Shown piece after piece: positions 3,081 to 48,529 of a DNA stretch of 64,000 nt. The notes beneath the pieces were generated by a model, which had not been told where the DNA came from, did no database searches, and was given only the letters and a program-made list of their open reading frames with translations. The stretch's first letter is position 1. Each line of letters begins with the position of its first letter. A program made the position numbers and the translations under genes. Origin of the DNA: Azolla caroliniana (lineage: Eukaryota > Plantae > Polypodiophyta); the NCBI GenBank assembly GCA_043228905.1, contig JBHGNT010000005.1, positions 1,240,001 to 1,304,000 of the forward strand. Direction: 5' to 3'.

Positions 3081-3698
3081 TGTTATTCAAACTATTAGAC
3101 CAGACAGCAACTGAAAGGAATACAGGGGTCAGTCTCGGCCTGGCCGACTCTTAGGTTAAACTTAAGCTAGACAGTCGGACAAACAAGTGAAAAAAGAAAA
3201 GAGCCGACGCAGAAGTTTAACGTGGAAACACTAAATGGGAAAAACTACGGGAGCTGACAAACTCCGAACAGATTCACTATCGGAGAGTGTATATAAGAAC
3301 TCATGGTCATAACCTTGTTAAGATCTTCGTCTCAATAGGCGGATATACACAGCGAACAAGGGAAACAAAGAAACGATCTATGCAGAGTCATCAACCTGTC
3401 GGGTCAGATTCGAGGGTCGGCTGCTACACAAGCTCGACCTCCACAGCACACAGTCCTTTGATCTCCTTTCTCTTACTGTTCTATCTTCTCAGTTCTATCT
3501 CACAATATTCTACTTTGTTATGTGTAGCAATCACTAATCATGCATGCCTAGGGTTTATACATACATACATACATATGTATGTATGTATTTACATATTTGT
3601 CCTTAGCCGGATAGCCGGCTCTCAACCGGCCCATATACCAATCCGACTCTTAGCCGAATCAGCACTTCTCCCATAAGGAGGGACATCATCTCATAACA
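3081..3698 (-). mobile_element. Probable solo LTR, copia-like
   Basis: TGTTAT...ATAACA termini. Internal minus-strand motif CCGTAGTTTTTCCCATTTAGTGTTTCCACGTTAAAC resembles copia U5 regions. No clean TSD, so the left boundary is uncertain. Confidence 0.45.
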
Positions 3699-6064: not shown

Positions 6065-7427
6065 ACAAAGCAGCGGTTAAGGAGATCACACTAAGAAAAC
6101 CGGATGACTGGAAGACCTCACTATTAGTAAAGATGAACCATTATAGTATGAGTGAAGTGAGAGTTATATGGAAAACCTTAACTTCCCTAAGTACTGTGTA
6201 GCACCACATATGAGGTATATCATGTACATGTGGTTACGTGGGTAAAAATGCTCTTGCCAGCTCCAAAGTAAAAAGTTCCCATGTATAGGAAAATGGTTCA
6301 CATCAAAGCTACTCGAGGACCAAAGGGAGATATTGGTGAGCATGCAATACACTAAACATGCTTATAGGAATACCAACATAGACATGTTTTGTCACTCGTT
6401 GATTTTTATGACCAAAACAGGAAACCTCTTTTGAGTTTCCATCCATTGTCAAGACACCATTGTTCAACAAAAAGACTGGATACAGTTATAGAGGTTCTGG
6501 CCAGCATCTCTACAACAATTGGGTTGATCTGTGGTTTTGACAAATAGACTAAAAATTACTGTAGAAAGACCAGTCACCCAAGTTATTGGCTATTTACGTA
6601 CCATACTGTACCATTACAAACCAGATTCGTTTACATGTTTCTATGGATGGATTTGGAGGACTCTGAGACTCTAGAGGTTGAAGACTCAGATGCCATTAGT
6701 AATGTGGCAGTTCTTTCTAGGAGCAAGAGTCAATAAAGTAAAGTCTTGTGTAAAATATACACAGATCTCCCATCAGCATAAGTAGATAGTTCAGCTTTTC
6801 ATTCCAATAATTTGCCTCTCCCTTGCACTGATTTCAGTGCAAAAATCTGAAATAAAATACCACTCCATAAAGCAACAATCAAACCCTTGCACTTCTTCTA
6901 TGATAAGAGTATATACCATTGCAAGAGCAGCACTTATCGTCCTTCCTAACGCACAATTTTATTGGAGATCGTAACACAAAAAATGGACAGTTTTGAAGAC
7001 ATTGTCTATCAACAGATAGAATTTACAGGCTACACAAGTTCAATTAGGTTTCGATTCTCTTTCTGAAAGAAGCATGTCTGAAAGTATATCTCACCAGGAG
7101 GAAGGAATATTAGACATCAATATTTTCTTCTTCCTTTTTCATTTCACAAGCATATGGATGGCATATTAAATAAAAGCAGCAAATGAACCAAATATAAAAA
7201 ATTATTATACTCACTATATTACAGTACAACTATCTTTACATGAAAATGCCCTATTAAAACTTACTCACTTTGCTTTGAGTTGTTGAGGGTTTGTTTTGCA
7301 GCTGTATTTTCAATAACCTCAAGAATGAGGGTCTTGACAATATAAAAACCATATGGTGTCATTTCCTGCAGAACTAAAGACATTAAATGACTCCAATACT
7401 GCTCTAACGCTCTCTTTTTATTAAGAA

Positions 7428-8670
7428 AGCAGGGCCTTCATATATTAACTGTTCAAAAAAAAATCAGCATTGCCATGTGACCCAGTTCAGAGGATATTAC
7501 AGAATGTGATATATACAAGTGCAGTTCAACCACTTGAGTGCATAAGAAACTACTCTGGTGTACACCATAGGATGCTTAGGGATATATATGCTCATAATTT
7601 CAACCTCTCATAGTTTAACAAAACATGTGGAGTCTGCATCCTCTGTACTGAGCATACATCTGAATCATTACTAATCAATTGGATGTTGGTAAAGAGGCAT
7701 GAACACATGTAAATTGTACATACGCATTATCTGGAGTCCCATCATTCTTTACTTGGCATTTTCAGCATAGCGAAGTTGATCAGATAATATCATTCGCTTC
7801 GCACAATATATACACAGATTCAACTTGTGCAAAAACAAAAACAAAAATTATACTGTATGCAAATGGCAAGTGAAAGCGAGTTTATTCCACGCATTTGAAT
7901 GCCTCACTGGAAGGCAATCTATCCCCAAGGATCTTGACTCCGTTTAGAAAGACAGATAGATAGAGGCATGAATGCATGTAAATTGTACAGATGCATTATC
8001 TGGAGTCCCTTCATTCTTTACTTGGCATTTTCTGCATAGCGAAGTTGATCGAATAGCATTGTTCTCTTGGCACAATATATACACAGATTCAACTTATGCA
8101 GAAATTTACCTGTTCAAAACAGGGCCTTCATATATTAACAGTTCAAAACATCTTTCAGCATTGCCATGTGACCCAGTTCAGAGGATATTAAAAAATGTGA
8201 TATATACAAGTGCTGTTCAACCACTTGAGTGCATAAGAAACTACTCTGGCGTACACCACGGGATGCTTAAGGATATATATGCGCATGATTTCAACCTCTC
8301 ATAGTTTAACAAAACATGTGGAGTCTGCATCCTCTGTACTGAGTATACATCTGAATCTTTACTAATCAATTGGATGTTGGTAAAGAGGCATGAATGCATG
8401 TAAATTATACAGATGCATTATCTGGAATCCCTTCATTCTTTACTTGGCATTTTCTGCATAGCGAAGTTGAACAGATAAAATTGTTCTCTTGCCACAATAA
8501 TACACAGATTCAACTTATGAGGAAATCTACCCTTCCTCCAAAATCCCAAAAAACGAAAATTATACTGTATGCAAATTGCAAGTCAAAACCAATTTATTCC
8601 ATGCATTTGAATGCCTCACAGGAAGGCGGAATCTATCCCCAAGGACCTTGACTCCATTTAGAAAGATAGA
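7428..8670. repeat. Complex local tandem duplication (~690-bp period plus a third partial copy)
   Basis: CAGGGCCTTCATATATTAAC occurs at ~7430 and ~8120. The GAGGCATGAA...GCATTATCTGGA block occurs at ~7695, ~7963 and ~8386. Confidence 0.85.
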
Positions 8671-12500: not shown

Positions 12501-13514
12501 TGTCGTGAAGATTTTCGGCAATAGTGTGAAAATCCCATAAAACGTACAAAATCGAGTATGAATCATGTAATACAATAATTGTGAAGATAACATTTTTAAT
12601 ATCTAAGTACAAAATGATGGAGGTTTCGAATGCACTTTATTACACGAGAAATGGACAACTAAATGTCAAGATATGAGGGTATAAAGTTTGTGAAAAGAAA
12701 AGAGAAAATTGTGAGATATCCCACATAGGCACGACAAATACGGCTCTCATCATATATAAGGAGGAGCAAAAGATATTATCTTTGTGTCTATGTGTGGAGC
12801 ATAGAGAGTTCAAGGTAACTTGAACTTAGAGTGGAGGTGGCTAGCTACTCGTAAAAGGTTTTGGCCAACCAAAACCGAACCGGCGATGGAGCCGGTGATC
12901 CGACGGCATGCGGCGGCGGCACCGATATCCGGCGTCGGTATCCGGCATCCGGCGGCGGCACCAGTATCCGGCGTCGGCATCCGGCGACGGTATTCGGCGA
13001 ACCGACGACTAGATAAAATAAATATATAAGAATATATACATATACAAGGAGGGCAAGTATGGATTCAAACCTTGCACCTCCAAGTTAGGAGTCAAATGGC
13101 TTACCATTAAGCCATAATATTTAGTTGAAATTATATTTCTATCATTGTAGTTTTACATGTAAATTCTCATCCATGAGTGCTAAAATGAGTGACATGGTTA
13201 GCATGCACCACATGTAATACTTAAGCGCCAAATGGCAAACATGCAATTTATGCATGTCTTGTACCCTCACATGCATCATATGCATGAGAGCATCTATAAA
13301 AGAGGGAAGGGGGAGGAGAAAAACATGGTTTTTTTTATGAAAATTAAGAAGGAGAAATTCGTTGTCAAATCAATCGTGTAATCTCATCTTCTCTCTTTCC
13401 CAATCTATCTTAAGTACTTTCTCGCCAAAGCTTGTATCGACTCTAAATCCTTCTGGTCCAGAACCCCGGCGGTTCCGCCTCACGATCCGCGCGTAGTGAC
13501 GGATCTTCACGACA
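12501..13514 (+). repeat. 5' LTR (1014 bp)
   Basis: Direct repeat of 26412-27433 with 12-bp terminal inverted repeat TGTCGTGAAGAT/ATCTTCACGACA. Contains a GC-rich 39-bp tandem duplication (~12912-12990) and CTATAAAA at ~13294. Confidence 0.97.
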
Positions 13515-13540: not shown

Positions 13541-13581
13541 AGAGGCGGTAGGAAGGATCAAGTCGAGATTAATACTTGGAG

Positions 13582-15780
13582 ATGGCGTCCTCAAGCAACC
13601 AAGCAGGAGAGCTCGAAAGGATGATGCTAATCGTCGAGCAAATGATGAGATCTCGGGACAACGACGCGAGCGTGGAGAAGGCTGTCGATCGTGTCGTAGA
13701 GCTCGAGGGCCAATTCGATGGAAGGAACGTTACGAAGTTCCTTGATGCATATAAGAGGGAGATGAATCAAAGGGACGTGTCCGAGGCACGTCAAATCGCA
13801 AGCTTCAAGAGAGTTGTCGCCAACAACATCCAAAGACGCGTCATCGAGCTTCAAGAAGGAAAGACAACATGGTCCGAGTTCGAGAAAACGATACTAGCGG
13901 AGTTCGTGACTGAAGACTCAACGAGGATGACTCGACATGCCCTGATGAAGTGGATAGAGAAGAAGAATAAGAAGATGAGCGTCTCGAGGGTGTATGACGA
14001 ATTCGACCAGATGTTTAGTCGTCTCCCCAATACGGACCAAGTATTGCTTGAAGAGGACAAGACTTTGTACTTCTTGAAGGCCGTGGACATAAAGGATAGA
14101 CGGGAGTTGGGGACTCTTCTCGAAGATGATACCCAAGCAAATGGGCTCGTAGCGGACTGGATCGCGGTGAAGCGGGCATGCAATAGGCTCGACAAGCGTC
14201 GCCAATGGGTTGATGACACCGACTTGACGGGACCGACTACCACGGAGAAAGCAAGACCGCCGAAAGTAGTTGAGCCGCCGAGACAAAGTAACGTGGAAGA
14301 AAAGAAGATTGATGACGACATCATTGAAGAGCTAGCGAAGAAGTTCAAGAAGGTCACGCTAGCCAACATGAATCGTCGGGGCCCTAAAGGAAAAGAACCC
14401 TTTAGATGCGTGTGGTGCGATAGCATGGACCACATGAGAAGGGATTGTGCGAGCCTTCGAGAGGCGATTCGACAAAATATCGTATACATAGAGGACAACA
14501 TGATCTGCTCAAGCGAGACTAGAAGACCCCTACGGGTGAATTTCGGAAGAGGAGGAATGAAGAGATCTATGGAGGATGCCGATGCGACTCATGTGGATGC
14601 GATGCACTATGCTGCGTCGGCCGGAATAAGAGTCGGGAAAGACAAGACTGAAGCTGCTAGAGCGGGAGCAAAGTTTTGGACTTCCGTTCTCGAATATGAG
14701 AAGAAGGGAAAAGTCACATCGAACGAGGTAGAGCTTGCGGACCGAAACGTGCAAAGCATAACCGGGTGGTCGGATCCGGTGGATGACAACACCATACTCG
14801 CAGAGGTGATGTGCGACAACCACGAGGTGTTCGTCGAAGAAAAGAGAAAGAGAATAGAAGACCAAGGGCCATCAAAAAGACATGAAACAAGGAACGCGAA
14901 AAAGAAGGACGATGCGGAGACGAGTCGACCTTTACAAACGGAGGAACGAGAATCAAGCCGAAAAGGGGAGCCGAGCATACGAGTTGAAGAAACGGTTCGG
15001 CCCGTGAAGGTTGGTGTCGAAGACCCCGCTCGGAGGACAAGGACCATACCTACCTATAAGCTAAGGTCGGACATAGAGCAGACGACGGACCTAAAGAAGA
15101 TTCTTGAAGAACGAGTTCTTGATAGCCATGTAACTTTGTCCTTGAGGGAATTGCTTGGCATTACAAAGAAGGAGTTCCATGACACGATCGTGGACCTTGT
15201 AAAGAGAAAGAGACAACAATCGGACGAGGAAGAAGAGAAGCCGCAGAAAGCAAAAACGAATGCCATAACGATGGCAAGAGACGAAATCGATGAAGATATG
15301 GTGGACAGCCACTACACTCGACCTCATTGGGCACGAGCGACAACAGAGACGCCGGTGAAGATCGGGGAGAAGAAAGAGACCGTCGTAGCCTTGATCGACC
15401 ACGGCTCGGAGATCAACCTCATGTCAACCGACTTCTACAAAAAGGGAAGATGGCCAATCAATACAAACCACGGATGGAAGATTCGCGCGGCAACAAAGTC
15501 TACGGAGGACTTGTACGGAGCTTGTCCCAATGTCAAAGTCACGATCGGGGATGTGGAGATGGATCAACACTTCTTCGTACAAGAATCGGCGTCGCATCCT
15601 GTCATCCTAGGGCAACCTTATATCACATCATCTCGGATGGAGACCAAAGTGTTCGATAATGGAGCAGCCTTCGCACGAATAAAGAGTCTTGACAACCAAA
15701 GATCGGTCCAATTCCTAACGGTGCGAGCCAATCATGAAAGGAATCGAGATAGTCTCGGAGGCGAATCCTCGTATTTTTAG
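13582..15780 (+). CDS. gag: Gag-protease ORF1 of gypsy element
   Basis: First ATG at 13582 in the 734-aa ORF. CCHC knuckle CVWCDSMDHMRRDC and aspartic protease motif ALIDHGSEIN...ILGQP. Confidence 0.92.
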   Translation: MASSSNQAGELERMMLIVEQMMRSRDNDASVEKAVDRVVELEGQFDGRNVTKFLDAYKREMNQRDVSEARQIASFKRVVANNIQRRVIELQEGKTTWSEFEKTILAEFVTEDSTRMTRHALMKWIEKKNKKMSVSRVYDEFDQMFSRLPNTDQVLLEEDKTLYFLKAVDIKDRRELGTLLEDDTQANGLVADWIAVKRACNRLDKRRQWVDDTDLTGPTTTEKARPPKVVEPPRQSNVEEKKIDDDIIEELAKKFKKVTLANMNRRGPKGKEPFRCVWCDSMDHMRRDCASLREAIRQNIVYIEDNMICSSETRRPLRVNFGRGGMKRSMEDADATHVDAMHYAASAGIRVGKDKTEAARAGAKFWTSVLEYEKKGKVTSNEVELADRNVQSITGWSDPVDDNTILAEVMCDNHEVFVEEKRKRIEDQGPSKRHETRNAKKKDDAETSRPLQTEERESSRKGEPSIRVEETVRPVKVGVEDPARRTRTIPTYKLRSDIEQTTDLKKILEERVLDSHVTLSLRELLGITKKEFHDTIVDLVKRKRQQSDEEEEKPQKAKTNAITMARDEIDEDMVDSHYTRPHWARATTETPVKIGEKKETVVALIDHGSEINLMSTDFYKKGRWPINTNHGWKIRAATKSTEDLYGACPNVKVTIGDVEMDQHFFVQESASHPVILGQPYITSSRMETKVFDNGAAFARIKSLDNQRSVQFLTVRANHERNRDSLGGESSYF

Positions 15781-18700
15781 AGCGGACTATTGAAGCATGG
15801 GGCACAAATAGTCCGAGCAATCACAAGACCCCACAAGAAAGAAGAGTGCGTGGATTGCAAGGAGAAGCAACATGTGTCACACCTAGTGGCGCATGTAAAC
15901 TAGTACTACCCGACAAGAAGCACAAGAGCCGGATACAAGAATTCGAGAAGATGCTGAAAGAAGAGAACATAATAGAAGAAGGAGAGTTCGTGACTCATAT
16001 TATGGAAGAAGCCTCATTTAACGACACCATCGGCGAAATCGAGGACGTCGTGGACTTGAGCTATCTTCACAACCAACGTGTGATTTCGGTTAACTCCGTC
16101 AACATGTATGTTATCATTGATGAATACCGTCATGGCATCTCGATGAATGAAGCTGACATCAACACGAAATATAAAACAGTGGGTAAGAAGATCGAGCCAG
16201 TTGCGGTTCCGCTACCGGAAGATAGCTGGCAAAAGATGAAGGAAGTCGCTAACGATCCAAGCTTAAGAGATCCGAAGAAGATAGGTCATGACTTCATCAA
16301 AGAGACGAAGGGGAAGCTACGAGTTGGAAAGGAGGATTTCCTTCTCCCTGAAGAGGAGCGAATGTTTCGCGATATGCTTGAGAGACATGGGAAGGCTTTC
16401 GCATTCTTCCCACGAGAAATCGGATGCGCCGACCCAAAGGTTATAGAGCCAATGGTGATCTTCACGGTGCCTCATGTGCCTTGGAATTTGAAACCGATAC
16501 CGGTTTCGAGAGCACACCTTCCGAAGCTGATCGAGCTCTTAAAGGAGAAGGTGAGTATGGGAATTCTAGAACCGTCGAATGCTCCTTATTCCAATAGGTG
16601 GTTCACGGTGCCGAAGAAGAATGGATCATTGCGATTCATCCAAGATCTTCAACCCGTCAACAAGGTGACAATTCGAAATGCAGGAATCGGTCCGAGCGTG
16701 GACGAATTTGCCGAAGCGTTTGCGGGCCGGTCCATCTACTCCATTGGCGATCTCTACTCCGGATATGACCAATTCCAGTTGGCGATCGACAGTCGGGACA
16801 TTACAACCATGAGGACTCCGATCGGGCTTGTGCGGATGTGTACCTTACCCCAAGGCGCAACGAACTCGGTGGCTCATATGGTGAATGCCATGAATAAAGT
16901 CTTGAAGGATTGCATTCCGGACATCACGATGCCATTCTTGGATGATATTCCGATAAAAGGATGTTCGGATGAGGAGAAAGATGAATCGAAAGATAAGGAA
17001 GGTTGTAGAAAGTTCGTTGCGGATCATATGAAAGATTGCGAGAAGGTGCTTCAAAGGCTCGAAGATGCGAATTTGACATTTTCGGGAGAAAAATCCGCAT
17101 TCGGGAAACCGGAGATCTTGGTGGTAGGTCACTTGTGTGGAGCATACGGCCGGAAGCCCTCGCCATCCAAAGTGAACGCAATCCAAGACATGAAAGAAGA
17201 ATGCGAAAACCAAACGGAGGTTCGAAGGTTCCTTGGAGCGTGCGCATTTTATCATATATGGATTCCTCACTACGCTCATGTCGTTGAACCGTTATATGGA
17301 CTACTAAAGAAAAGAATAAAGTTCGAATGGCGAGACGAGCACACAGAGGCGATGCGAAGATTAAAGAAACTGCTTCTTGAAGCTCCGGCACTAAGGAAGG
17401 CCGACTATGCCGAAGGGAAACCAATTTATGTGACCGTAGATACAAGCCCAACCAGAATCGGGTGGGTCATCAATCAAGAAGGTGAAGATAATGCGCGATA
17501 TGCCGTCCGGTTCGGAGCAAAGGTTCTCAGCGAACGGCAACAAAGATATGCCCAAGTCAAGCGGGAACTTTGGGGTATTGTGTCGGCAGTGAAGACGGAC
17601 AAAGATTACCTGATCGGATCAGAAGTGATAATAGAGACAGATTGTCTCCCAATTCTCGGAATGGTCTCAGGATGTGCGACCCCAGATCTTGCTATGCTAA
17701 GGTGGATCGCCTACATCAAGTCTTTAAACCCAGAGATCCGTCACATCGCAGGGAAGAAGAACGCCATGGCTGACATGCTGTCGAGGGCAAGATTTTCAAA
17801 TGGAAGTAACATGGTTTCGGAAGATGAAGATGTCGCCCTCGACTTCTTCAAGATGGCTCGATTGTCGGCGGAAGACCAGGACATGCAAACCCTCCACGCC
17901 TTCAACGAGAACGAGTACGAAGGAGAATGGTTACTCATCGGTAGATTCCTAAGAACATTGACGACAAATGCTTCGTTGACAAAGGAGGAGGCCCTACGAA
18001 TCCGAAAGAAAGCTTACCGATACTTCTTGAAGGGAGGATTCCTTTGGCGACATCCAAAAAGAAGGACAGGAATACCACGTCGAGTGGTGGTAAAGAAAGA
18101 AGAGCAAGAGACGTTGATGACCGAATTCCACGAGAGTGCTTGGGCAGGTCATAGAGGAACATGGGCGACGTTCGAAAAATTGAAGGAGAAGTATTGGTGG
18201 CCAAGCATGTACAAAGATGTACTCCATTTCGTGTCCACATGTGAAACTTGCCAAATATATTCAAATATACGTCATCGTGATGAGTTAAAGCCGACATACC
18301 CACTCACCATTCACTTCAAATGGATGGTGGATCTGGTCTCGATGCCAATGGGAGTGGGACAAATGAAGTACTTAGCGCTCGCAAGGGAAGACTTGACAAA
18401 TCAAGTGGAAGGACGAGCCTTGACAAATAAGACGACTTCAGCCGTTTGCAAATTTCTACTTGAAGATGTTGTTTGCCGATATGGATGTGTAGGGAAGATA
18501 GTGGCCGACCGAGGGGAGTTGGACGCGCACGAAGCGACGGAGCTCTTCGAAAGACTAGGCGTGAAGCTCTCCCTCACGACTGCCTACGATCCGGAAGCAA
18601 ATGGGAAGATCGAGCGAGGGCATGGACCTATCGTTAAAGCCATCGTACAGGCATGCAACGGTCGAGTCGGGAATTGGCCATGACTATTACCCTATGCCTT

Positions 18701-18813
18701 GTGGGCCGATAGAACGACACATAGCTCGGTGACAGGGTATATGCCGACGGAGCTTATGTATGGACAAAAGCCGATTATGCCCATCGAAAGGACGATCGCC
18801 TCATGGGTAGCGA
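15774..18813 (+). pseudogene. pol: Pol ORF2 (RT-RNase H-integrase) in the -1 frame; premature TGA at 18681-18683 and cut by a TIR element at 18813
   Basis: RT motifs DLYSGYDQ, LPQG, FLDD. RNase H VDTS...E...DCLP...AD. Integrase HHCC (HESAWAGH...CETC) and D,D,E (VDL, ADRG, IER). The frame continues after the stop as LLPYALWADRTT...SWVA. Confidence 0.93.
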
Positions 18814-19049
18814 CCTGGGGACTTCACTATCAAAACTTGTATGATAGCACGTGAGTTCATCAAAAGGGGTTTTAATTAATCAGTGAGATACAGAATATAT
18901 ATACATAAGGGTATTAATAAAGATTTGAAAATATTTTTACATAAGGGTATTATCAATTATGCTGAAAAAAAAATTACGTAAGCCCATGAAATATTAGATA
19001 TTTCAATGAAATAGTAAAGAATATATTATGCAAAGAATACTCAAATTTG

Positions 19050-21042
19050 AAGTGGCATACATACATACATACATACATACATATACATGCATGCATCCAT
19101 ATATACCTACATTCAAACATTACATCCATGAATATGTATATACATACATACATTACACCCATTTATACATGCATGCTGACTAAACATAAATATATATTAC
19201 CATATGTAAATATGTACATACACATACATACATGCATTACATACTACATACATATTAAAATTGGCCATATATATTGACATACATATATAGATAATACATA
19301 CATTAAAATTACATATTACATTTATACATACACTTCCTTACAAACATATTTTATATATTACATATGTACAAATATATATTACCATATGTAAATATGTACA
19401 TACACATACATACATGCATTACATACTACATACATATTAGAATTGGCCATATATATTGACATACATACATAAAAATTACATATTACATTTATACATACAC
19501 TTCCTTACAAACATATTTTATATATTACCATATGTAAATATGTACATACACATACATGCATGCATTACATACTACATACATGTTAGAATTGGCCATATAT
19601 ATTGACATACATACATAAAAATTACATATTACATTTATACATACACTTCCTTACAAACATATTTTATATATTACATATGTACAAATATATATTACCATAT
19701 GTAAATATGTACATATACATACATGCATGCATTACATACTACATACATATTAGAATTGGTCATATATATTGACATACATACATAAAAATTACTTATTACA
19801 TTTATACATACACTTCCTTACAAACATATTTTATATAGGGAAAAGTACCAAGATACCCTTGGAAGTTTGTCTATTTACCAGAATGCCCCTGGACGTTCCA
19901 AATTTACCAAACTACCCCTATGTCCAAAAAAATACACAGGGGTAGTTTGGTAAATTTGGAACGTCCAGGGGCATTCTGGTAAATAGACAAACTTCCAGGG
20001 GTATCTACTTTTCCCTTTTATATATTACATATTACATACATTTATTATTATACACACAATTATATACAAATGCAAATATACAAACCAAACACAAAAAATA
20101 TAAAATTCATATTATATATATATATATATTATATACACATACATACACATACACACATTCCATACATATAATACAATACAATATGTACATATATACACAC
20201 ACAAACATAACACACATCACACATGCATATCATATACATGCATATATACCTACAAGCTACATTCATATATCACACATGCATATATACCTACATACATGAA
20301 TATGTATATACATACATTACACTCATTTATACATACATATTAACTAAACATAAATATATGTACAAATATATATTACCATATGTAAATATGTACATAATAC
20401 ATACAATAAAATTACATATTACATACATATATACATACACAAATGCATATATACATACAAAACACACAAAAATAAATTACATATTATATATATGTATACA
20501 CATACACATACATATTAACACCTAAAGGCTAAGATTACATACTATATATATACAAATCTTCATACTTACAAACAAGTTACATATATTACATATATATACA
20601 CGTGCACACACATAAATAAATTAGATATTACATAGCATATATTACACAATATTCAAATTTACACATACATAAATTACATATATACATATATAGATACATA
20701 CATAGATATACATATTACATATGTACATACATATTCCACATATCACCATATATATATGTATAGATTATACTGGACCATACAAACCACAATACTTATATAC
20801 ACACACACACACACACATTAGATATATGTATACTTACACACACATTAGATATGTATATGTATACTTACACATAAATAAATTAGATATTACATAGCACATA
20901 ATCCATACCTATTACACAATATACAAATTTACACATGCATAAATTACATATATACATACATAGATATATTACATATGTACATACATATTCTACATATCAC
21001 CATATGTATAGATCATACTAGACCATACAAACCACAATACTT

Positions 21043-21076
<34 letters not shown>

Positions 21077-22237
21077 TAGATATATGTATACTTACACATA
21101 CATTGGATATATACATGCATATTACGTACATATTACAAACATACATCCATATATGAGCCATATACATATGTACTAAACATGATAATATCCCAAAAATATA
21201 GATACATAAATACATTACATATATACACATACATACATTCATACATTTACATATATATGACCACATACACACACATACACACATACATTAGATATATATG
21301 CACATATTACAAACATATTCATACTCATTAAATCATGTATATCGACATATACATATATGCATACACATACATACATTACATATGTACATACATATTCCAC
21401 ATATCACCATATATATATGTACATATGCCTACAATGTTAAAAGTTTTACAAACATACATCCATACACATATATACATACATTACATGCATGCATACACAT
21501 AAATATGTTACATACACATACATACATACATTTCATCACAGACTACAATACATACATGTATACTTACACATACATAAATATTATGAACACACTCATGTAT
21601 GCATAGTACACTATTACACATACAAACATACATGCATTGCATATTACATATATATACATATGTACATGCATACATGTACATTCATGTGTGTACATACATA
21701 CATTGCATATGCATATATTACAATCACATTCATATACATTGAATCATGTACATTGTCATATATATGCATACACGTATGTACATTCATACATGGACATACC
21801 TATATTCATTTATATATTGCTACAGTCTACATATACATAAATTAGATATATACATAAATATTACAATCACACATCCATACACATTGAATCATGTACATTG
21901 TCATATGGATATATGCATACACATACATACATACGTGTATGTATACATACATACATATGTGTATGTATACATACATACATTAGATATGGATATATGCATA
22001 CACATATGTACATTCGTATATGGACATACATATCTTCATTTATACATTGCTACACATACATACACATATATACATTAGATATCTACATAGATATTATGCA
22101 TATATTACAATCACACATCAATACACATTGAATCATGTACATTTGCATATGCATATATGCATACACATATATACATTCGTACATGGACATACATATAGTC
22201 TTTTATACATTGCTACATGTACATACACATACATACA

Positions 22238-22270
<33 letters not shown>

Positions 22271-22683
22271 TAGATATACACACACATACGTATATATATA
22301 TATACACCTACATATAGTCTTCTATACATACACATACATTACATATGGATATATGCAAACACATATGTACATTCGTACATGGACATACATATATTCATTT
22401 ATACATTGCTACATATACATACACATATATATACATAGATATTATGCACATATTACAATCACACATTGAATCATGTACATTTGCATATGCATATATGCAT
22501 ACACATACATACAATCTTTTATACATTGCTACATGTACATACACATACATACATATTACAAACAAATATCCACACACACACACACACAAATATACATACA
22601 TTACATATTACATATGTACATTTATATATTCATTCATTCATGTTTATTCATTGAAGCATACATATTTTATGCATACATTACAT

Positions 22684-22742
<59 letters not shown>

Positions 22743-23685
22743 TTCATTCATTCATGCATGCATACATTATGTGCACATACATACATAACATACATTCATA
22801 CTAAACATACATTCAAACATTCATGTTTTTTTATTTAGATATTTGCCTCCTCCTCCTTTGCTCCCTCCTCTTCTTTGCTCATTTCTGTGATTGCTTCTTC
22901 TCCCCTTCTTTTTGTCCTCGTTTTGCCGTCGCCACCGCTCGCCTTGTCGTGCCGCTTTTGCTCACCATTATTCTCTGTTGGGGCTGCCACAACTATTCTA
23001 CAAATATTTTGCAGGTACACATAAGTACAAACATAAACCAACACATAAATTCTTAGCCACACACACACACGTACATACATACATACATACATAAACACAC
23101 ACACACACGCGCGCGCGCGGGCCATACATACAATAAACGAAATTAATACATTACAATATTATATGTACATATATACACACATACCTATGTACACATACTT
23201 ACACATTTACACATATAACACATACATACAATACAATATGTACACACATACATACATACACATGGAATACAAACAATACATACATAAACACACACACACA
23301 CACACACATGTGTAGAATATACATACACACATGTACACACATATATACACTTACATACATACACATTTACACATATAACACATACATACAATACAATATG
23401 TGCACACACACATACATAAACACACACACACACACACACACACACGTGTAGAATATACATACACATATGGACACATATATATGTTGTATGGAACATACAT
23501 ACACACACACAAACATAACACACAACACTCACATGAAATACATACAATAAATGCAATACAATATGTACATAATACACACATACCTATACACACATGCATA
23601 CAATCCATACAATACCTATATACACATATAATGCACACATACATACATAAACCAACACATAAATTCTTAGCCACACACACACACG

Positions 23686-23736
<51 letters not shown>

Positions 23737-24069
23737 GCCATACATACAATAAACAAAATTAATACATTACAATACAATATGTACATATATACACACATAC
23801 CTATATACACATACATACACATTTACACATATAACACATACATACAATACAATATGTACACACATACATACATACACATGGAATACAAACAATACATACA
23901 TAAACACACACACACATGTGTAGAATATACATACACACATGTACACACATATATGTTGTATGGAACATACATACACACATACCTATATACACATATATAC
24001 ACTTACATACATACACATTTACACATATAACACATACATACAATACAATATGTGCACACATACATACAT

Positions 24070-24106
<37 letters not shown>

Positions 24107-24172
24107 TAGAATATACATACACATATGGACACATATATATGTTGTATGGAACATACATACACACACAAACAT
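19050..24172. repeat. ~5-kb CA/TA-rich low-complexity tract with embedded 150-300 bp tandem duplications
   Basis: Near G-free + strand built of CATA/CACA/TATA. A ~150-180-bp unit occurs four times at ~19190-19837, with further duplicated blocks at ~23030-24170. Confidence 0.95.
19838..20015. mobile_element. Mutator-type fold-back MITE (178 bp)
   Basis: GGGAAAAG...CTTTTCCC termini, ~80-bp near-perfect inverted arms and a 9-bp TSD TTTTATATA (19829-19837, 20016-20024). Confidence 0.92.
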
Positions 24173-24175
24173 ATT

Positions 24176-24895
24176 GTTGAGGATGAGACTGTGATTAAGC
24201 GGAATGTTAAGTGGGATAGCTCAAATGAATTACTTTTGGGTTTTTGTGGGTTGAAGTCATCCAATCATTAATGTGTCTCATCATGTATGATAAAGGTTGG
24301 TGACTCTAATGCTGATTATGAAACCATTGTTAGCTCCTTTAAAGACTATGTGGTTGGACATTATGCTAGGGTGTTAATTGCGAATCCTCTTCACCCTAAA
24401 CTTCCACAATTAGTATTGGTTGTACAATGTACATGTAATTGCTTTGATGCAGATTTTGTAAAATGCCAATGGAATGAAGTGGAAACTTTATGGGAAAAAC
24501 ACCTCTCCACAAGTATTGGGCCAATTGTTGGACATGTATTTGATGGAGATAGTAGGAGAAGAAAGATTATGCTTCAAGTTTACTTAACCCCAAGCATATG
24601 CTTAAGATATAAATTGCCTTGGGATGGTTGGATCTTCATAGGTCAAATGCATAATGATATGGTAAGTTGTCTTCATGATCAAGATTTCATCCATAATCGA
24701 AAGAAACTTGTGAATGCACTAGATAATCCCTCAAGACAATTAGTAATTGGGGATGTATGGATCACATTGAATCATGTGTCTTTGGTATATAATAACTTCT
24801 CTATTGATGCACATGGCTTAAGGGAATGTGATATTACGAGAGAAGATAGGCAAAATTGGGCTGGAGCTCAAAGAATTGCAAGTAGAAATGTAGAA
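24176..24895 (+). pseudogene. P-element/THAP9-like DDE transposase fragment
   Basis: One frame with a single TAA (24269-24271): VEDETVIKRNVKWD..LLGFCG ... GHVFDGDSRRRKIM ... QDFIHNRKKLVN ... DRQNW. This gives first D, second D, a DxxHxxK motif and the insertion-domain region. N- and C-termini are missing. Confidence 0.7.
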
Positions 24896-25887
24896 ACCAA
24901 ATATAAACCTACTGTATTCCAAATATATTTTCTGATTTCTTTACTTCCATGTATATTAAGATTTCTTGCTTTTGTTGTTACATTTTATGATATAGGTCCA
25001 ATGTTGAAGATGGAAACGACATGAAATTTACAGCCTAAAATGAACTTCTTAGGGTTTTCTTTTTATATACTCAGTCTTTATAAGGGTAACCTTTATTGCA
25101 ATAAGTTTTTTAAGTAGATATTCCAATAACAAAATGATTTATTTTATTTCATTTTGATTTGGGTAAGAGTATGTGAATAGATGATGTCTTACATTTCAAA
25201 TGGAAATATGAAGTAGGTTGCCATTTGTTTGATCAATGTGTTTGAGAAAAAATAATATTATGTCTTTATATGAGTCTATATCCATGAAACCAAACATAAT
25301 GTTAATTTGTTAGTAATTTCATTATTGATATGCATTTTGGATTGTTCCATATGTGCTCTTTGAGATGTATGTGTTAAGTTCAAGATTGTTTTATTGTAAA
25401 TTACATTGTTTTTTATCACTCAATGTTCTTCATACGTCTCAATAAACTAAAAACAAAAACTTATATGTGGCTTGTATATGTTATACCTGTAGTGTTTTTG
25501 GGTAATGTTTCCTAATTGTGTGTACATTACTTTGTACTTTACACATTGTGTTTTCAATCTATGTGGCACTTAATGAAACATTTCTAGGAATTTGCATATG
25601 ATGTTTAATGTCGATTCATAATTTTGCGAGTCATCAATTGTAAAGATGGTCATTGATCCCTTCTAGGATCACAACCTATGTGTGCATGTATATTTTATAT
25701 GTAAGGGTATTTAAAATGGGTGGTTATCAAAAAATATATTGGTAATAAGGGGTATTTTTATTAATCTTTTTTCTACAGAAGGGTTACTAAAATAGTAAAA
25801 ACCATACGTATAAGGGGTTTATAAATGATGTCATGAACGCACGTGATACAACCTTCTTATGTATAGTGGAGTCCCCGGGGGTAGCGA

Positions 25888-26339
25888 TACCGTGGGGGAA
25901 CGAGATGAGCCGAGAAGAGTTATTAGCAGCGCGGATAAGGCAACTTGAAAGAAGACCTGAAGATTTAGAAAAAGCGCGAAAGATGATGAAGGCAGGCCGA
26001 GTAAAGAACAAAGTTCGGTTCGACAACACGCATCGACTTCGTCCCAAGAAGATTGAAGAAGGGGATTGGGTTTTAGTTTACGACATCACCCTTGACAATC
26101 AACATAGTACAACAAGGAAGTTCGCAAGAAGATGGTTCGGGCCGTATGTGGTGACAAGTGCCAACGATAATGCCACATACCACCTTACGGAACTAGACGG
26201 ATCAAGGTTGGTCGTACCCATTGCGGGAAAAAGAGTAAAGCTTTTCAAGAAAAGACAAGACAAGGATCCTGACCTCGATTACCTCGACGATGAACATAAT
26301 AGGCCGGATGAAAATGAAGACATGGAGGAATCTAATTGA
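25888..26339 (+). pseudogene. pol: C-terminal remainder of gypsy integrase (GPY/F module, no chromodomain)
   Basis: IPWGNEMSREELLAARIRQL...GDWVLV...KFARRWFGPYVV continues the frame interrupted at 18813. Confidence 0.9.
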
Positions 26340-26398
26340 TCATCGTAGCCGAAATCTCACTTCTTCTCTTCTTGGCACGTACCGAAGGACGTGCGGTT

Positions 26399-26411
26399 TG
26401 GTGGGGGTGGA
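26399..26411 (+). promoter_or_regulatory. Polypurine tract
   Basis: G-rich GGTGGGGGTGGA immediately before the 3' LTR. Confidence 0.75.
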
Positions 26412-27433
26412 TGTCGTGAAGATTTTCGGTAATAGTGTGAAAATCCCATAAAATGTACAAAATCGAGTATGAATCATGTAATACAATAATTGTGAAGATA
26501 ACATTTTTAATATCTAAGTACAAAATGATGGAGGTTTCGAATGCACTTTATTACACGAGAAATGGACAACTAAATGTCAAGATATGAGGGTATAAAGTTT
26601 GTGAAAAGAAAAGAGAAAATTGTGAGATATCCCACATAGGCACGACAAATACGGCTCTCATCATATATAAGGAGGAGCAAAAGATATTATCTTTGTGTCT
26701 ATGTGTGGAGCATAGAGAGTTCAAGGTAACTTGAACTTAGAGTGGAGGTGGCTAGCTACTCGTAAAAGGTTTTGGCCAACCAAAACCGAACCGGCGATGG
26801 AGCCGGTGATCCGACGGCATGCGGCGGCGGCACCGATATCCGGCGTCGGTATCCGGCATCCGGCGGCGGCACCAGTATCCGGCGTCGGCATCCGGCGACG
26901 GTATTCGGCGAACCGACGACTAGATAAAATAAATATATAAGAATATATACATATTTACATATACAAGGAGGGCAAGTATGGATTCAAACCTTGCACCTCC
27001 AAGTTAGGAGTCAAATGGCTTACCATTAAGCCATAATATTTAGTTGAAATTATATTTCTATCATTGTAGTTTTACATGTAAATTCTCATCCATGAGTGCT
27101 AAAATGAGTGACATGGTTAGCATGCACCACATGTAATACTTAAGCGCCAAATGGCAAACATGCAATTTATGCATGTCTTGTACCCTCACATGCATCATAT
27201 GCATGAGAGCATCTATAAAAGAGGGAAGGGGGAGGAGAAAAACATGGTTTTTTTTATGAAAATTAAGAAGGAGAAATTCGTTGTCAAATCAATCGTGTAA
27301 TCTCATCTTCTCTCTTTCCCAATCTATCTTAAGTACTTTCTCGCCAAAGCTTGTATCGACTCTAAATCCTTCTGGTCCAGAACCCCGGCGGTTCCGCCTC
27401 ACGATCCGCGCGTAGTGACGGATCTTCACGACA
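26412..27433 (+). repeat. 3' LTR (1022 bp)
   Basis: Matches 12501-13514. By eye the only differences are two C/T substitutions near the 5' end and an 8-bp indel (~26954). Confidence 0.97.
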
Positions 27434-36300: not shown

Positions 36301-36503
36301 GCATCATCATTAGCCCTAAATTTATTATGCCCCCTGCCCCCACCACCACACACATTTCTTTTACTTCTTCCTCCATTGGTTTGGGTAGAATCAAAGGTTT
36401 AATGAACTCCACACAAAAAAACCCACCACTTCTTGCCGTTTTCCCTCAACTTAAAATCCTGGACCTTCCTTTTTGTGAAGAGCTTTAATCATCTAGCTAC
36501 CTA

Positions 36504-39360
36504 ATGGAAACCATCCATTGTTCATTTGCCTTAATGACCAACAATACCAATATCTCAATGCTTGCTGCCTTACTCTTATTGATCCTTATTCCATTACCTA
36601 CCTCTTCTTCTTCTTCTTCTTCTTCTAAATTTTCCAATTCTTCTTTTAACTCCGACTCTCAATTATACCATGAGTATGCCCTCATACTACTAGAGATTAA
36701 GTCTCTTCTCATTGATCCAACGCACTCCTTGCAAAGTTGGTCTATGGACAAATCTTCTTCAGTTTGCATGGATTGGGTTGGCATAACTTGTACCAATACC
36801 AATTCTTCCTCAGATAATCACCATACCGATCAGGCTATTATCACTAATTCCTCTCTCGACAATGCCCACATGACCGGCTACGATGTGATTACTACCATTA
36901 ATCTCGCCAATAAGAACCTCTCTGGTTCTCTCTCCCCTGCCATTGGCTCTCTCACCTCTCTTCAAGTCCTCAACCTAACCAGCAATTGGCTCTCTGACTC
37001 TCTACCCATTCAACTCATGGATTGCCGGAGCCTACAGAAACTAGATCTTTCCACTAACAACTTCTCTGGTGAGATACCTGTTGGTTTCTCTAAGCTTGCC
37101 AACATAGAGGTAATTGATCTTTGGACTAATTCCTTTGTTGGGTCTATACCTCAGGACATTGTGCTTTGCTCTAATCTCCATTACCTAGACTTGGGTGGTA
37201 GCTACCTTGAGGGTTCAATACCACCTGATATTGGAAACCTCACTAAACTAAGATACCTCACATTGGCTGGTAACTTGCTGAGTGGTTTTATCCCCACATC
37301 TATCAAGCTCTTGTCTCAATTAGAATGGCTGTATTTAGGCTATAATGAACTGAATGGAATCATACCTTATGAAATAGGTGAATTAACTAGGCTTAACCAT
37401 CTTGATCTAGTGCATAATAACCTATCTGGACCCTTCCCTCCTAGTATCACCAACCTAACTGGGTTGCAAAACCTCTTCTTATATGACAACATGATTGAAG
37501 GTCCAATCCCACCGTCTGTATCTAATCTAACCCAGCTTTTGTCTCTAGATTTGAGTAACAACAGGATGGTGGGCACTATCCCTGCAGGGATTTCTAACCT
37601 AAAAAACCTTCAAATCCTCAATCTCTTCTCTAATGGCTTCAATGGGGAGATACCCAATAGCATTGTGAACCTGAATAACTTGCAAGTGTTAGCCCTTTGG
37701 AAGAATTCATTGTACGGTGAGGTGCCAGCAGGGTTAGGTATGAATTCACCCTTAATGGAGGTAGACCTATCTAGCAATCAGTTGACAGGACCTATCCCCC
37801 AAGGTCTGTGTGCATCTAAGGTTCTTAAGAAGCTCATATTATTCACAAATTACATGAATGGACCCATCCCAACAGGTTTATCCCATTGCCATAGCTTGCG
37901 AAGGGTGAGGATACAAGGGAATCTCTTCAATGGGACCTTCCCAAGAGCATTTGGAAGTCTTCCCTTTGTGTATTACTTGGACATTTCTTCTAACAATTTG
38001 AATGGAAATCTGGATGATTTCACTTGGAACATGCCATCCCTCCAAGTCCTCCATCTTCAAAGCAATCACTTCAGGGGGTCTATACCTCCTTCCCTTCTCA
38101 AAACCTCAAAATCCCTTTTCACACTAGACCTCTCCCACAATGCTTTGTCGGGAAGCATCCCTCTGGAGATCGGCTCCTTGTCGGAGCTCAACACATTCAA
38201 TGTTAGTGGGAATGCTATCGAAGGAGAGATGAACGATGGGTTGCTAAAGTGTGTGAAAATGGTGTCTTTAGACCTTAGCAATAACAACCTAAGTGGTCAA
38301 ATCCCGCCACAATTGGCTAACATGAAGATGTTAAGCACGCTGGACATATCGTGTAACAACTTGTCTGGGTCTATACCCCTTGAATTAGGGGGCATGGAGT
38401 CCCTTGTATTTGTTAATGTCTCATTCAATCGTCTATCCGGCAAGGTTCCACTCAATGGTGCCTTTATGAACATTAATGCAAGTGCCACCCAGGGTAATGA
38501 AGGTCTTTGTGGAGGAACCAGCCTTGGTCCTTGCACTGCCAGTGAAGCTACTAATGCGAATGTCATATCTTTGAAGACAAGAATCATTGCAATTCTCCTC
38601 TTGATTTGTCTCTTGTTGGCTATGGCTTGCCTATGCCACCTTATATGGAAGCTCAAGCAAGTAGGTTTCCTCGACGCAACCACCAATATCGTCGGTGCCT
38701 TAACAAAGATGACAGGAAAAGCGAGACGAAGGAAGGCGATTCGAACTAAAAGGTGGGGAGAATGGAGCCTCCAGCTATTCCAACAAGTGAACCCTAGCAT
38801 AGAAGAAATCTTGGAAGCTATAAACAATCAAGAGATTCATCTCTTGGAAAAGAGGCACTCTTCCTCTCGGGGTAGTCATATCATGTACAAGAGCAACACC
38901 CAAGAAGGAGAAACATTTGCAATCATGGAGTTGACACTAACCTATGGCTCTATGAATAACGAGGGGTTTCGTTCCCTCGAGGACGTGCTTCGGATGATGG
39001 GCACATCAACACACCCGAACGTTGTGAACGTATACGGGATATGCTCATGCGTAGCTAGCTCTATAGTGGTGTTTGAAGTGGTAGATGGTATTAGACTCAG
39101 CAGTTTGCTTAATGGTTTCTCATATGATATCGAGCAAGGTGGTGAGCATCACTTGGATTGGGCCAAAAGGCTCGACATTGCTATTGGTATTGCGGAAGCG
39201 TTGGTTCACTTGCATAGCTTGTCCATTATCTATGGATGTGTGTGCTCTTACAACGTGCTCGTGGAATGGAGAACCCTTGGTGTAGTAGCTCGATTGCTCC
39301 CGCCCACCACTTCCGGTACTGCACGGCTTATTGTTCGTCACGATTCGATAAAAGATGAAG
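36504..39360 (+). CDS. LRR receptor-like (pseudo)kinase, SKM1/At2g25790-like, exon 1
   Basis: Signal peptide, LRRNT (CMDWVGITC), ~21 plant LRRs, GNEGLCG cap, TM helix (IIAILLLICLLLAMACLC) and a degenerate kinase. LDLGGSYLEG, WLYLGYNELNGIIPYEIGELTRLNHLDLVHNNL and GAFMNINASA recall At2g25790. Splice donor GAAG|GTAAAC at 39361. Confidence 0.92.
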
Positions 39361-39838
39361 GTAAACAAACAAGCATGCACTGTCCTTTCTTTCTCTGCTT
39401 TTTCTTGTCTTCATTTTTTAAAATAATGGTAGATGAGACTAGGATATGTCCCAGAGGCTCACGTCCAATGGTGTCCAATACCCCTCTATGTTTATTGGAA
39501 AATCTGGAATGGCAAGGGATAAGCCACACAATTGGACTGTACATATATATGCATGGTTGGGTCGTGAATCATGTCTGATTTTATTGGGTGCTTGTACATC
39601 AAAATGACGCACAGAATGCTCAACATTATTGGGTAACTAACTGCAACTAAGTACAAGGGGTAGCAAATTACAACTAGTAAGGTATGTAATGGGGCTGCAG
39701 TCGCCCTTCCTTACATGTGGTGTTAGATGGGGTAGTGGCATTTTGCAGGATGTGTGAGTGAGTCTAAGGCTGCAAGACAAGGTATATTGAATTGTAAATG
39801 AAGAATATTATGCATTTGCTCATAAAGAATGTGTATAG

Positions 39839-45382: not shown

Positions 45383-45672
45383 TGTCATAACTAGACTCGA
45401 ACCCATAACCTTTTGTTACACGGGTCGAGACTTTACCATTAGGTTATGAGTTGTAATTTGAAGGATATTATTTTCATTTAGGTTTTATTAGGAAATTGAT
45501 GTATATTCCAGATTTCTCTGGAACATTCTAGAAACTTCAGGAGTATTCCTGAAGACACTATAAAAGGAGGCGCAAGGCATTAGTTCGAACCAAATCGGTT
45601 CAACGCCAGTCTTAAGCCTTCTAACTACTGTTGTATATCTTCCGTCATATAATACATATATCTTTCGCATCA

Positions 45673-45718
<46 letters not shown>

Positions 45719-45851
45719 ACTCATTCCTTCTCTCAAAGTTCGACACCTCTCATAGTACTAATCCTTCTCTGTCTTAGTACTATTCCCCAACAATAGTACT
45801 AATCCTTCTTTTAGTACTAATTCCTTCTCTGCCTTAATAGAGTTCCTGACA
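45383..45851 (+). repeat. LTR-A (469 bp)
   Basis: TGTCA...TGACA ends, TATAAAA at 45559-45565, a (CT)n tract and four TAGTACTA repeats in U5. Confidence 0.97.
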
Positions 45852-45853
45852 GT

Positions 45854-45865
45854 TTGAACCGATTT
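45854..45865 (+). promoter_or_regulatory. Self-priming-type primer binding site
   Basis: TTGAACCGATTT lacks the TGG of a tRNA PBS and is the exact complement of AAATCGGTTCAA at 45592-45603 in the LTR. A second copy lies on the minus strand at 48453-48464. Confidence 0.85.
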
Positions 45866-47221
45866 GACCTTGGCTGGGTCCATAGATATGCCTTCTGAGG
45901 AGATGACATAGCCGAGAAACTCCACTTGGTTGCACCCGAAACTACATTTCTCTAACTTTGCATACAGACCATGTTCTCGAAGTCGTTTTAGTACTAATAG
46001 TACATGAGAATCATGTTCTTCTTGGGTCTTTGAATAAACCAGTAGATCATCCAAATAGATGATCAAAAAATCATCCAAGAGGTCTCGAAATATATCATTC
46101 GCCATGTGCTGGAAGACTGCCGGCGCATTAGTGAGTCCGAACGGCATGACCGTATACTCGAAGTGCCCATATCTGGTGCGAAACGCGGTCTTCCATTCAT
46201 CTCCTGGTCGGATCCGTACGAGGTTATAGGCTCCTCGTAAGTCGATCTTCGTGAAGAACCTGGCACCGTTGATCCGTTCTAAAAGACTTGAGATAAGGGG
46301 AAGAGCATACCTATTTCTTACTGTGACCTTATTCAAGCCACGGTAATCTACAACGAGTCGAAGCGAGCCATCTTTTTTCTTGACGAAGAAAATGGGTGCG
46401 CCGGCTGGAGATTTCGAATGCCGAATGAAACCGTTCTCCAAATTCTCCTCTATATAGGCTCGAAGGACTTCTAGCTCGGTTGGTGACAAATTGTAGATCG
46501 GCCCCCATGGCGGCTCTTTTCCCGGTTGTAAGTCGATGGCGCAGTCGTACGGCCGATGATGAGGAAGTGTGTTGGCTTGTACTTTATCGAACACATCAGC
46601 ATACTGACGATACTTCTCGGGAAGTTGAACGGTGGACTCCTCTTTGGTGGTGCTGGAGGGTTGTACTGATATTGCAAAGAGAAACATTTCCTCCTTGCGC
46701 CCTTCCTCACGCAACTGACGTAGCGAAATGGTTGCAACCTTCTGGGTAGATCCTTGGGTTTGTCGCAACCGGATTTCCCTTGTCCTCCAATCTATGTCTG
46801 GGTCATGTAACTCGAACCATGGTAATCCTAAAACTATGGGATGTTCTGGAATACTAATAATATTAAATGATACTACACATGTTAAGTTATCTAGGACAAT
46901 ATTAACGGGTTCCGACTCTTCTATGATATTACCAGAAGCAATGGGACGACCATCAATGACTACTACTGAGGCTGGACATGGGAGCTTTCTGAGAGATATC
47001 TGATGAGCTCGGGCAAAATTCCTATCCATGAAGCAAGAATTAGCTCCGGAATCTAGAAGGGCTAAGGTATGTACTGGAGGGGTACTTTTAGTACTAACTG
47101 CTACTTGGACTACGAACACATCACTAACTTGCTTAGAGGGAATGGAACCACTAATGGGCTGCACAGATCTAGGGCTGTCCAACCAAACGGCTCCTATTTT
47201 GGCTGGACTTAGTCGTTTAAC
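45863..47221 (-). pseudogene. pol: Pol copy 1 (protease + RT), truncated at the inversion junction
   Basis: ALLDSGANSCF, DLRGAY, MPFGL, YLDD. Homology stops at ISMDPAKVK; the remaining ORF tail is read-through into antisense LTR-A. Confidence 0.93.
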
Positions 47222-48378: not shown

Positions 48379-48529
48379 GGGATGAAGGAAAAGGGAAATA
48401 AGAGACTAGTAGGAAAGGAGAGAGACAGAAGGAAGAGGGAGACTAGTAGGGGAAATCGGTTCAAACTGTCAGGAACTCTATTAAGGCAGAGAAGGAATTA
48501 GTACTAAAAGTACCCCTCCAGTACATAAC

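Follow-up and report, generated by a model that had tools for sequence, protein, structure and literature searches.

P elements and a fern locus

P elements occur in green algae; Repbase holds P families in Chlamydomonas, and RepeatMasker has a class P-Fungi. The window considered here, the whole stretch of 64,000 nucleotides analysed from contig JBHGNT010000005.1 of the fern Azolla caroliniana, contains at positions 18814-25879 a P-type transposon copy of 7,066 bp that lies inside the integrase region of a gypsy retrotransposon. The window element belongs to a cut-and-paste transposon family, of which it is a non-autonomous copy with two deletions; it is real, and a divergent land-plant form of the P superfamily. 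The transposase of that family, of which this copy retains a fragment, is predicted to have the fold of the Drosophila P-element enzyme; we put the probability of the whole reading, insertion by enzyme from a full-length copy included, at roughly 0.85.

The closest described systems are the Drosophila P element and the divergent P elements of the Drosophila repleta group. The fern family resembles Drosophila P (structures 6P5A/6PE2) in its predicted helix-turn-helix, its predicted RNase H domain split by a helical insertion and its predicted C-terminal domain, and in a catalytic Asp-Asp-Glu (DDE) set accompanied by a D(2)H motif. It further shares with fly P, as described in the accessible part of PMC7776569, duplications of an 8-bp target site (TSDs), short terminal inverted repeats (TIRs) together with subterminal repeats, many internally deleted copies and a gene that is spliced, with a truncated splice form. 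The differences are as plain. The fern family is without the THAP domain; two C2H2-type fingers and a predicted ubiquitin-like domain take its place, and the tail is BAH-like; its protein is of ~1,370 amino acids and its element of 10 kb, against an 87-kDa protein and 2.9 kb in the fly; its TIRs are 17 bp and imperfect, against 31 bp and perfect; its subterminal repeats, unlike those of Drosophila P, lie on the same strand at both ends; and the host is a plant. According to the same part of PMC7776569, THAP is restricted to animals, so that non-animal P lineages are expected without it, and the P transposase is the only one known with a GTP cofactor. The divergent P element of the repleta group and its partner BuT5 (accessible part of PMC3698922) likewise have short TIRs and TSDs of 8-9 bp, come with non-autonomous partners and show inversions with exchanged TSDs; unlike the fern family, that divergent P has a THAP domain and an animal host.

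For plants, the accessible part of one review (PMC10741241) names seven TIR superfamilies, P not among them, and that of another (PMC9033089) counts six; the accessible parts of PMC10952607 and PMC12477816 hold nothing on P. No report of P elements in ferns or bryophytes was found in the literature listings searched; supplementary repeat tables of fern and bryophyte genome papers, and Repbase or Dfam, may already list a P class.

Borders and remains of the element

The element and its host retrotransposon, with the latter's long terminal repeats (LTRs), are laid out as follows; coordinates are those of the window.

12501..13514, + strand: 5' LTR of the host gypsy retrotransposon (LTR alignment)
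13573..18813, + strand: host gypsy gag, protease, reverse transcriptase, RNase H, and integrase up to the insertion
18806..18813, + strand: left TSD copy, GGTAGCGA
18814..18830, + strand: left TIR, 17 bp (sequence comparison and genome-wide pattern)
18906-18913 and 18942-18949, + strand: two left subterminal TAAGGGTA repeats, candidate transposase-binding sites, in the same places in 10/10 copies
19050..24171, + strand: simple-repeat tract rich in CA/AT, found in every copy; probably intron in at least its 3' part
19838..20015, no strand: 178-bp hairpin insertion with 73-nt arms and a 9-bp TTTTATATA duplication, a passenger miniature inverted-repeat transposable element (MITE)
22840..23014, + strand: likely upstream 5'-untranslated exon; 3' end AG followed by GTACAC, 5' limit approximate
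24172..24891, + strand: transposase remnant; first D at 24182, second D at 24542, D(2)H at 24683-24694
24892..25862, + strand: 3' part of the element, comprising the end of the terminal exon and the 3' untranslated region (UTR), in which a 109-bp intron is seen in the homologue on contig C2
25702..25818, + strand: three right subterminal TAAGGG(T/G) repeats, at 25702, 25746 and 25811, on the same strand as the left ones
25863..25879, - strand: right TIR (sequence comparison)
25880..25887, + strand: right TSD copy (sequence comparison)
25888..27433, + strand: remaining host gypsy, with the integrase tail and the 3' LTR at 26412-27433

The two TIRs (CCTGGGGACTTCACTAT on the left against the reverse complement of CCCGGGGACTCCACTAT on the right) are identical at 15/17 positions, and weaker inverted similarity extends beyond them to ~50 bp. 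They are enclosed by a perfect 8-bp TSD. In 9/9 fetched sibling gypsy copies GGTAGCGA is present once and the element is absent; the duplication therefore arose by insertion of the element. An initial annotation, made from the letters of the window, had described these ends, the duplication and a broken transposase, and all three stand. The EDET, DGD, QDFIHNRKKLVN and DRQN motifs that it listed lie in one frame from 24176, interrupted by a TAA at 24269-24271. What is left corresponds to residues 386-625 of the 1,122-residue relative P0001; residues 1-385 and those from 626 onward have been deleted, so that the copy no longer has the N-terminal domains, nor the third catalytic residue, nor the tail. 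Both flanks of the remnant are deletion junctions, the second deletion being joined at a short GT homology.

TAAGGG(T/G) words recur at fixed distances from the ends in 10/10 copies, all on one strand. Counted from the left end they stand at 93 and ~129 bp; counted from the right end, at 69, at 134 and in most cases at 178 bp. The window has 22 matches to TAAGKGKW, five of them no more than 180 bp from one or other end of the element, a span for which the window-wide rate predicts ~0.1; the pattern was picked after the repeats had been seen. Table 1 of PMC3698922 includes TAAGGGTT among the verified binding sites of fly P. It is close to the fern repeats TAAGGGTA and TAAGGGGT; the fern protein has no THAP to account for the likeness.

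The passenger MITE, which appears Mutator-like by its 9-bp TSD, is present in 4/9 other full copies compared as well, more than once in one of them.

Fold and motifs of the transposase

An AlphaFold model of P0001, built from a 96-row alignment, has a mean predicted local distance difference test score of 82.6, with values above 90 through most of the core. It matches the P transposase structures 6PE2 and 6P5A at E-values of 1.5e-10 and 1.8e-10, with template-modelling scores on the target of 0.68-0.71; the next matches are RAG1 (3e-4) and Hermes (3e-2). Compared with 48,161 chains (VIA), the model finds Drosophila P transposase at Z 26.9 and a root-mean-square deviation (rmsd) of 3.8, with 411/442 residues aligned; the runners-up are RAG (Z 9.0), ISCth4 (8.6), Transib (8.5) and Hermes (8.2). 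The span aligned with 6P5A, model residues 286-784 to chain residues 135-569, covers the helix-turn-helix, RNase H, insertion and C-terminal parts. In the ESM Atlas an unnamed cluster comes first (0.97) and P-transposase clusters next (0.95), and the best family-bearing matches belong to the P family or clan in 10/10 cases. The superfamily named by the initial annotation is thus supported by the fold and by the Atlas alike. Its proposed profile search of the remnant's translation fared less evenly: the remnant itself draws no Pfam family; among 68 proteins scanned, PF12017 and PF21787, both P-element families, are the only transposase families matched, and hAT is not among them.

The residues expected of such an enzyme are well kept. 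In P0001 numbering, the catalytic D389, D509 and E746 are conserved in 83/83, 90/91 and 76/78 rows; in the D(2)H motif, cited for the P superfamily in the accessible part of PMC3698922, D556 is found in 89/91 rows (C in the other two) and H559 in 91/91. The GTP-binding residues of fly P are D528, K385, K400, V401, S409, F443, D444 and N447 (PMC7776569, as far as accessible). D743, present in 66/78 rows, stands three residues before E746, the same spacing as that of the GTP contact D528 before E531 in the fly. S622 is kept in 12/15 and D661 in 11/13 near-plant rows, though not across the family (35 and 22 rows); any matching to GTP contacts here is by spacing, and putative. Found together are a predicted split RNase H core, D(2)H, a TSD of 8 bp, within the 7-9 bp of the P superfamily, and TIRs with subterminal repeats to which the protein may bind.

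The PF21787 profile, run over the whole assembly, does not detect the family of the window element. Its sole match above cut-off (C725:4495-4710) is broken, lies on a small AT-rich contig and may be foreign DNA.

The family in the genome

The assembly searched (523 Mb in 1,503 contigs) contains 66 exact matches to the TIR pattern and none to the reversed control, so that chance is excluded. A pattern for the left end gives 80 matches, that is, a family with at least 80 left ends. TSDs were counted in fetched copies with both ends visible, one-ended or endless stretches being left out: of 19 such copies, the window's included, 15 have perfect 8-bp duplications, two match at 7/8 and two are exchanged.

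The full element is ~10 kb. The longest two-ended copy spanning the whole gene (C2:23838239-23848419, 10,181 bp) covers all 1,122 residues of P0001 at 98% identity and carries five stops; it is the most complete of the scored copies. Other copies fall into deletion groups, within each of which the junctions are common to the copies. Seven of the first ten two-ended copies are of the window type, with only residues 386-625 remaining; a second group, of two copies, retains residues 386-1122; a third retains no more than the first 67 codons.

In no scored candidate is the long coding exon open throughout, whether the search was made with the core (50/50), the start of exon 2 (51/51) or exon 1 (91/91); these counts are lower bounds, and the assembly may be incomplete. 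The longest open frame containing the start of exon 2 is of 451 residues, and frames of 781-866 residues exist without the N-terminus. Open frames of 1,122-1,153 residues are found in four public proteins (P0001, P0019, P0023 and P0025), 96-100% identical to P0001. The genome-wide search for TIRs and TSDs that the initial annotation proposed has yielded a multi-copy family with mostly perfect duplications and, among the scored copies, no intact one; a polymorphic site, described below, comes from a separate DNA run.

Two family copies on contig C3 (1184526-1190606 and 1205708-1211756) lie in opposite orientation with exchanged 8-bp TSDs, the signature either of a 15-kb inversion by recombination or of misassembly between near-identical repeats. 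Paired copies 24-38 kb apart are seen at C5:12973968/C5:12998157 and at 23.02/23.06 Mb of C3; the right flanks of the C5 pair are identical, and the pair therefore represents one insertion copied by local duplication rather than two jumps. The flanks of several copies look like retrotransposon coding DNA.

Order and age of the insertion

The two LTRs of the host gypsy differ, as the initial annotation had it, by two substitutions (both C/T) and one indel (8 bp). The gypsy family is large: 3,072 candidates in the assembly, of which 40 were scored. All 39 of the other matches among these 40 lose similarity at the insertion junction, so a gypsy copied with the element already inside is unsupported; such an origin is also disfavoured by the closest sibling of the element, which has a different flank.

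The window copy itself has two private substitutions in 1,739 alignment columns of nine sibling copies, and shares seven substitutions with one sibling whose flank differs; the closest sibling (99.4%, at C5:24974444) is truncated by the end of contig C5. The few private changes agree with the divergence of the LTRs. Two changes in 1,014 bp correspond to ~76 or ~197 thousand years (95% limits 9 to 712) under two assumed substitution rates, an upper bound on the insertion if both LTRs stem from one event.

A presence/absence site adds to this. One contig of the DNA run X1 joins the right end of the element to a flank that is empty at C1:12855251 and occurs once in the assembly; the polymorphism is one of a single contig at a single site, and the relation of the X1 organism to the assembly is not given. 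Among the matches listed, with 712 further pieces outside the list, no DNA contig bridges the right junction of the window element.

The element was inserted after the young gypsy, and recent movement holds because the LTRs are near-identical, the private changes are two and the X1 site is filled in that run and empty in the assembly. Of the "very recent" jump first proposed, recency in this sense stands, "very recently" meaning tens to hundreds of thousands of years; current activity is not implied.

Predicted gene structure, likely transcripts and a possible mechanism

Contigs of X19, a run that is likely RNA, lack the 80-bp GT-AG intron that separates two frames in the C2 copy, with 255 letters on the short side and the frame kept; another skips a 109-bp GT-AG intron downstream of the stop. 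The loose end of one contig joins the upstream exon to coding exon 1 of the C2 copy, with the donor at window position 23014/23015. In a further contig (29 letters on the short side) a donor internal to exon 2 is joined to the last exon; the junction creates a TGA after 347 codons, and this short form would keep the N-terminal domains without the catalytic core. A further three joints depart from GT-AG and might represent deleted copies, and one contig has a 1-base gap in the coding frame. In three raw poly(A) runs of another organism no reads (0) fall on the transposase gene; this says nothing either way, since that organism was not seen on any other stretch.

The predicted gene thus runs from the upstream exon through coding exon 1, the 80-bp intron and the long exon 2 to a short last exon, for a protein of ~1,370 residues, a length that depends on a predicted last intron for which no joint was seen. 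In the predicted protein a ubiquitin-like domain and two C2H2-type fingers are followed by a helix-turn-helix, an RNase H core (D389/D509/E746) split by a helical insertion domain of the P type, and a tail that is BAH-like. Ubiquitin-like folds are matched by residues 1-82 (best Z 7.5, rmsd 2.8, 70 residues aligned), nearly all of the top 50 rows covering the span. Finger patterns of the form C-x2-C...H-x3-5-H number two in 5/7 long relatives and one in 2/7. P0001 residues 970-1092 resemble BAH, chromo, PWWP and Tudor domains (Z up to 7.0); the ESM Atlas gave no usable match for the C-terminal part. THAP (PF05485) was not matched by P0001 at E<=5 or by coding exon 1 at E<=0.02, nor does a THAP structure appear in the fold lists, where a missing row excludes nothing. 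The relatives P0249, P0426 and P0264 carry a Tudor (PF21743) or SAP domain; chromatin- or DNA-binding additions therefore recur in other branches of the family.

Fly P makes the 66-kDa and KP repressors (PMC7776569, accessible part). The short form from the fern recalls these, and by analogy might act as a repressor.

These parts suggest how the family could work. The zinc fingers would take the place of THAP and bind the subterminal TAAGGG repeats; the DDE core would cut at the TIRs and, in the manner of P, link the ends to positions 8 bp apart; copies that kept their ends and lost internal parts would have multiplied in trans, within three subfamilies or more. The window copy was then probably inserted into the young gypsy by enzyme from a full-length copy that is not intact in this assembly, the helper having since decayed or segregated away, or residing in unassembled DNA.

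Weighing the assignment and its alternatives

Several points weigh against a P-type transposon family mobilized in this way. In structural alignments, identity to the canonical P transposase is 14-15%. Sequence searches of the PDB, with P0001 or with the 96-row profile as query, return no transposase; Pfam gives no transposase family for P0001 either, and just one of the 68 relatives exceeds the curated P cut-off. The fold evidence comes from a predicted model of the relative P0001 rather than from the window fragment, and the matches of the N- and C-terminal domains (Z 7.5 and 7.0) are middling. The X19 run is taken as RNA by a tool's guess, each splice joint coming from one contig. An intact helper was not found in the assembly, where every scored copy is broken, and the contigs that carry the four open public frames, 5-8 kb long, may each average a number of collapsed copies. 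Finally, the host gypsy's own flanks match at 3/4 bases, so that its LTRs might be from separate insertions.

The initial annotation had gone further and assigned to this genome an autonomous partner that is active. A master copy in this very plant, intact and active, that moved the element within historical time would suit the two private changes in ~1,700 columns, the spliced X19 transcripts, the presence/absence site of X1 and the long open frames in public contigs, and an incomplete assembly could conceal it. This is nonetheless unlikely: no scored copy has an open long exon, the best having five stops; the LTR clock allows anything from 9 to 712 thousand years; and an X19 contig has the 1-base coding gap. 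The partner that was claimed is not seen among the scored copies.

A separate superfamily, sister to P, would share the fold and not the chemistry peculiar to P (the GTP cofactor and the long staggered cuts, of 17 nt at the element's ends). Such a placement might be read into the low identity and the lack of a profile match to 6P5A, the absence of THAP, the different terminal domains and the CCC...GGG termini; a library search, moreover, finds 2,400 clusters of relatives at E<=0.001, most without a Pfam family. We regard it as quite improbable. The whole span from helix-turn-helix through RNase H and insertion to the C-terminal part aligns with P; members from the same search grade into PF12017/PF21787; the D743/E746 spacing equals that of D528/E531; and the TSD has the length of P's.

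Horizontal transfer was also raised at the outset, as a matter for phylogeny. The named relatives are from the fern Adiantum nelumboides, the liverworts Riccia sorocarpa, Riccia fluitans and Calypogeia fissa, and the coral Desmophyllum pertusum; all are filed as hypothetical or unnamed proteins, and the long ones share the N-terminal fingers of the window's family. Identity over the catalytic core is 40-57% for the plant relatives and 39% for the coral. No seed-plant name appears among the 17 rows of one search or the best 120 of 213 of another, transposon proteins being often masked from gene sets. A quick, midpoint-rooted tree was made from 169 cores of 250 matches, short ones having been dropped; its rows are mostly unnamed, and it has no named outgroup. 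In it all 14 named plant rows (the query, five Adiantum, seven Riccia and one Calypogeia) fall in one 52-row clade, with 98 in the Shimodaira-Hasegawa-like approximate likelihood ratio test (SH-aLRT); the query groups with the five Adiantum rows (SH-aLRT 99), and the coral row lies elsewhere. A recent transfer into ferns from an animal or fungus could appeal to the coral relative and to the top ESM Atlas cluster, which by its few named members is mostly Basidiomycota; set against this single plant clade, it is very unlikely. The tree would favour long vertical descent in seed-free plants over recent transfer, and may be compatible with a transfer of ancient date to early land plants.

A hAT or Mutator element can be set aside with little hesitation, provided that the predicted model is right: the 8-bp TSD would suit either (8-9 bp is common in both), and Hermes and ISCth4 do appear in the fold lists; the motif, however, has D rather than C in 89/91 rows, Hermes (Z 8.2, rmsd 7.7) and ISCth4 (Z 8.6, rmsd 9.0) stand far below the 26.9 of P, no such Pfam family occurs in the 68 proteins, and the TIRs are only 17 bp, long ones being typical of Mutator and Mutator-like elements (PMC10741241, accessible part). 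The 19 different 8-bp TSDs set the family apart from Kolobok, which duplicates TTAA at its target sites.

A wider proposal can be put, tentatively and with the odds as a whole against it. Seed-free land plants would have their own ancient P clade, descended from the fern-liverwort ancestor and missing in seed plants; in it THAP would have been replaced by the ubiquitin-like domain and two zinc fingers, and a BAH-like, histone-reading tail would steer insertion; the clade would be still mobile in a fern lineage alive today, would make inversions, and would be self-limited by an alternatively spliced, 347-residue DNA-binding repressor paralleling the 66-kDa and KP proteins of the fly.

With a P-type family in ferns that is multi-copy, spliced and recently mobile, and that has relatives in liverworts, the superfamily reaches into land plants, and repeat libraries for ferns and bryophytes may miss or misfile such elements. 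A lineage of 14% identity, without THAP, lets one ask if the use of GTP, the staggered cuts and repression through splicing are ancestral or confined to the fly. A native element might also be put to use for tagging fern genes.

Other features of the window

Window 36489-39578 is a long exon of a leucine-rich-repeat receptor-like kinase of the SKM1 group. Below two rows that carry no species name, its best matches are from Adiantum capillus-veneris (49%) and Ceratopteris richardii (44%), seed plants ranking behind them; this supports the land-plant host given in the initial annotation. An ELO-family exon is found at 3221-3676.

A second retrotransposon, a chromodomain gypsy at 45383-54601, has three LTR copies (45383-45854 on the + strand, 48527-48996 on the - strand and 54135-54601 on the + strand), an inverted repeat of 1,224 bp, and gag-pol pieces present as direct duplicates that are 99.8-99.9% identical; the arrangement is either a very recent rearrangement or an assembly artefact. 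Degenerate tandem repeats are present at 7426-8670 (~270 bp) and at 60598-61024 (~160 bp).

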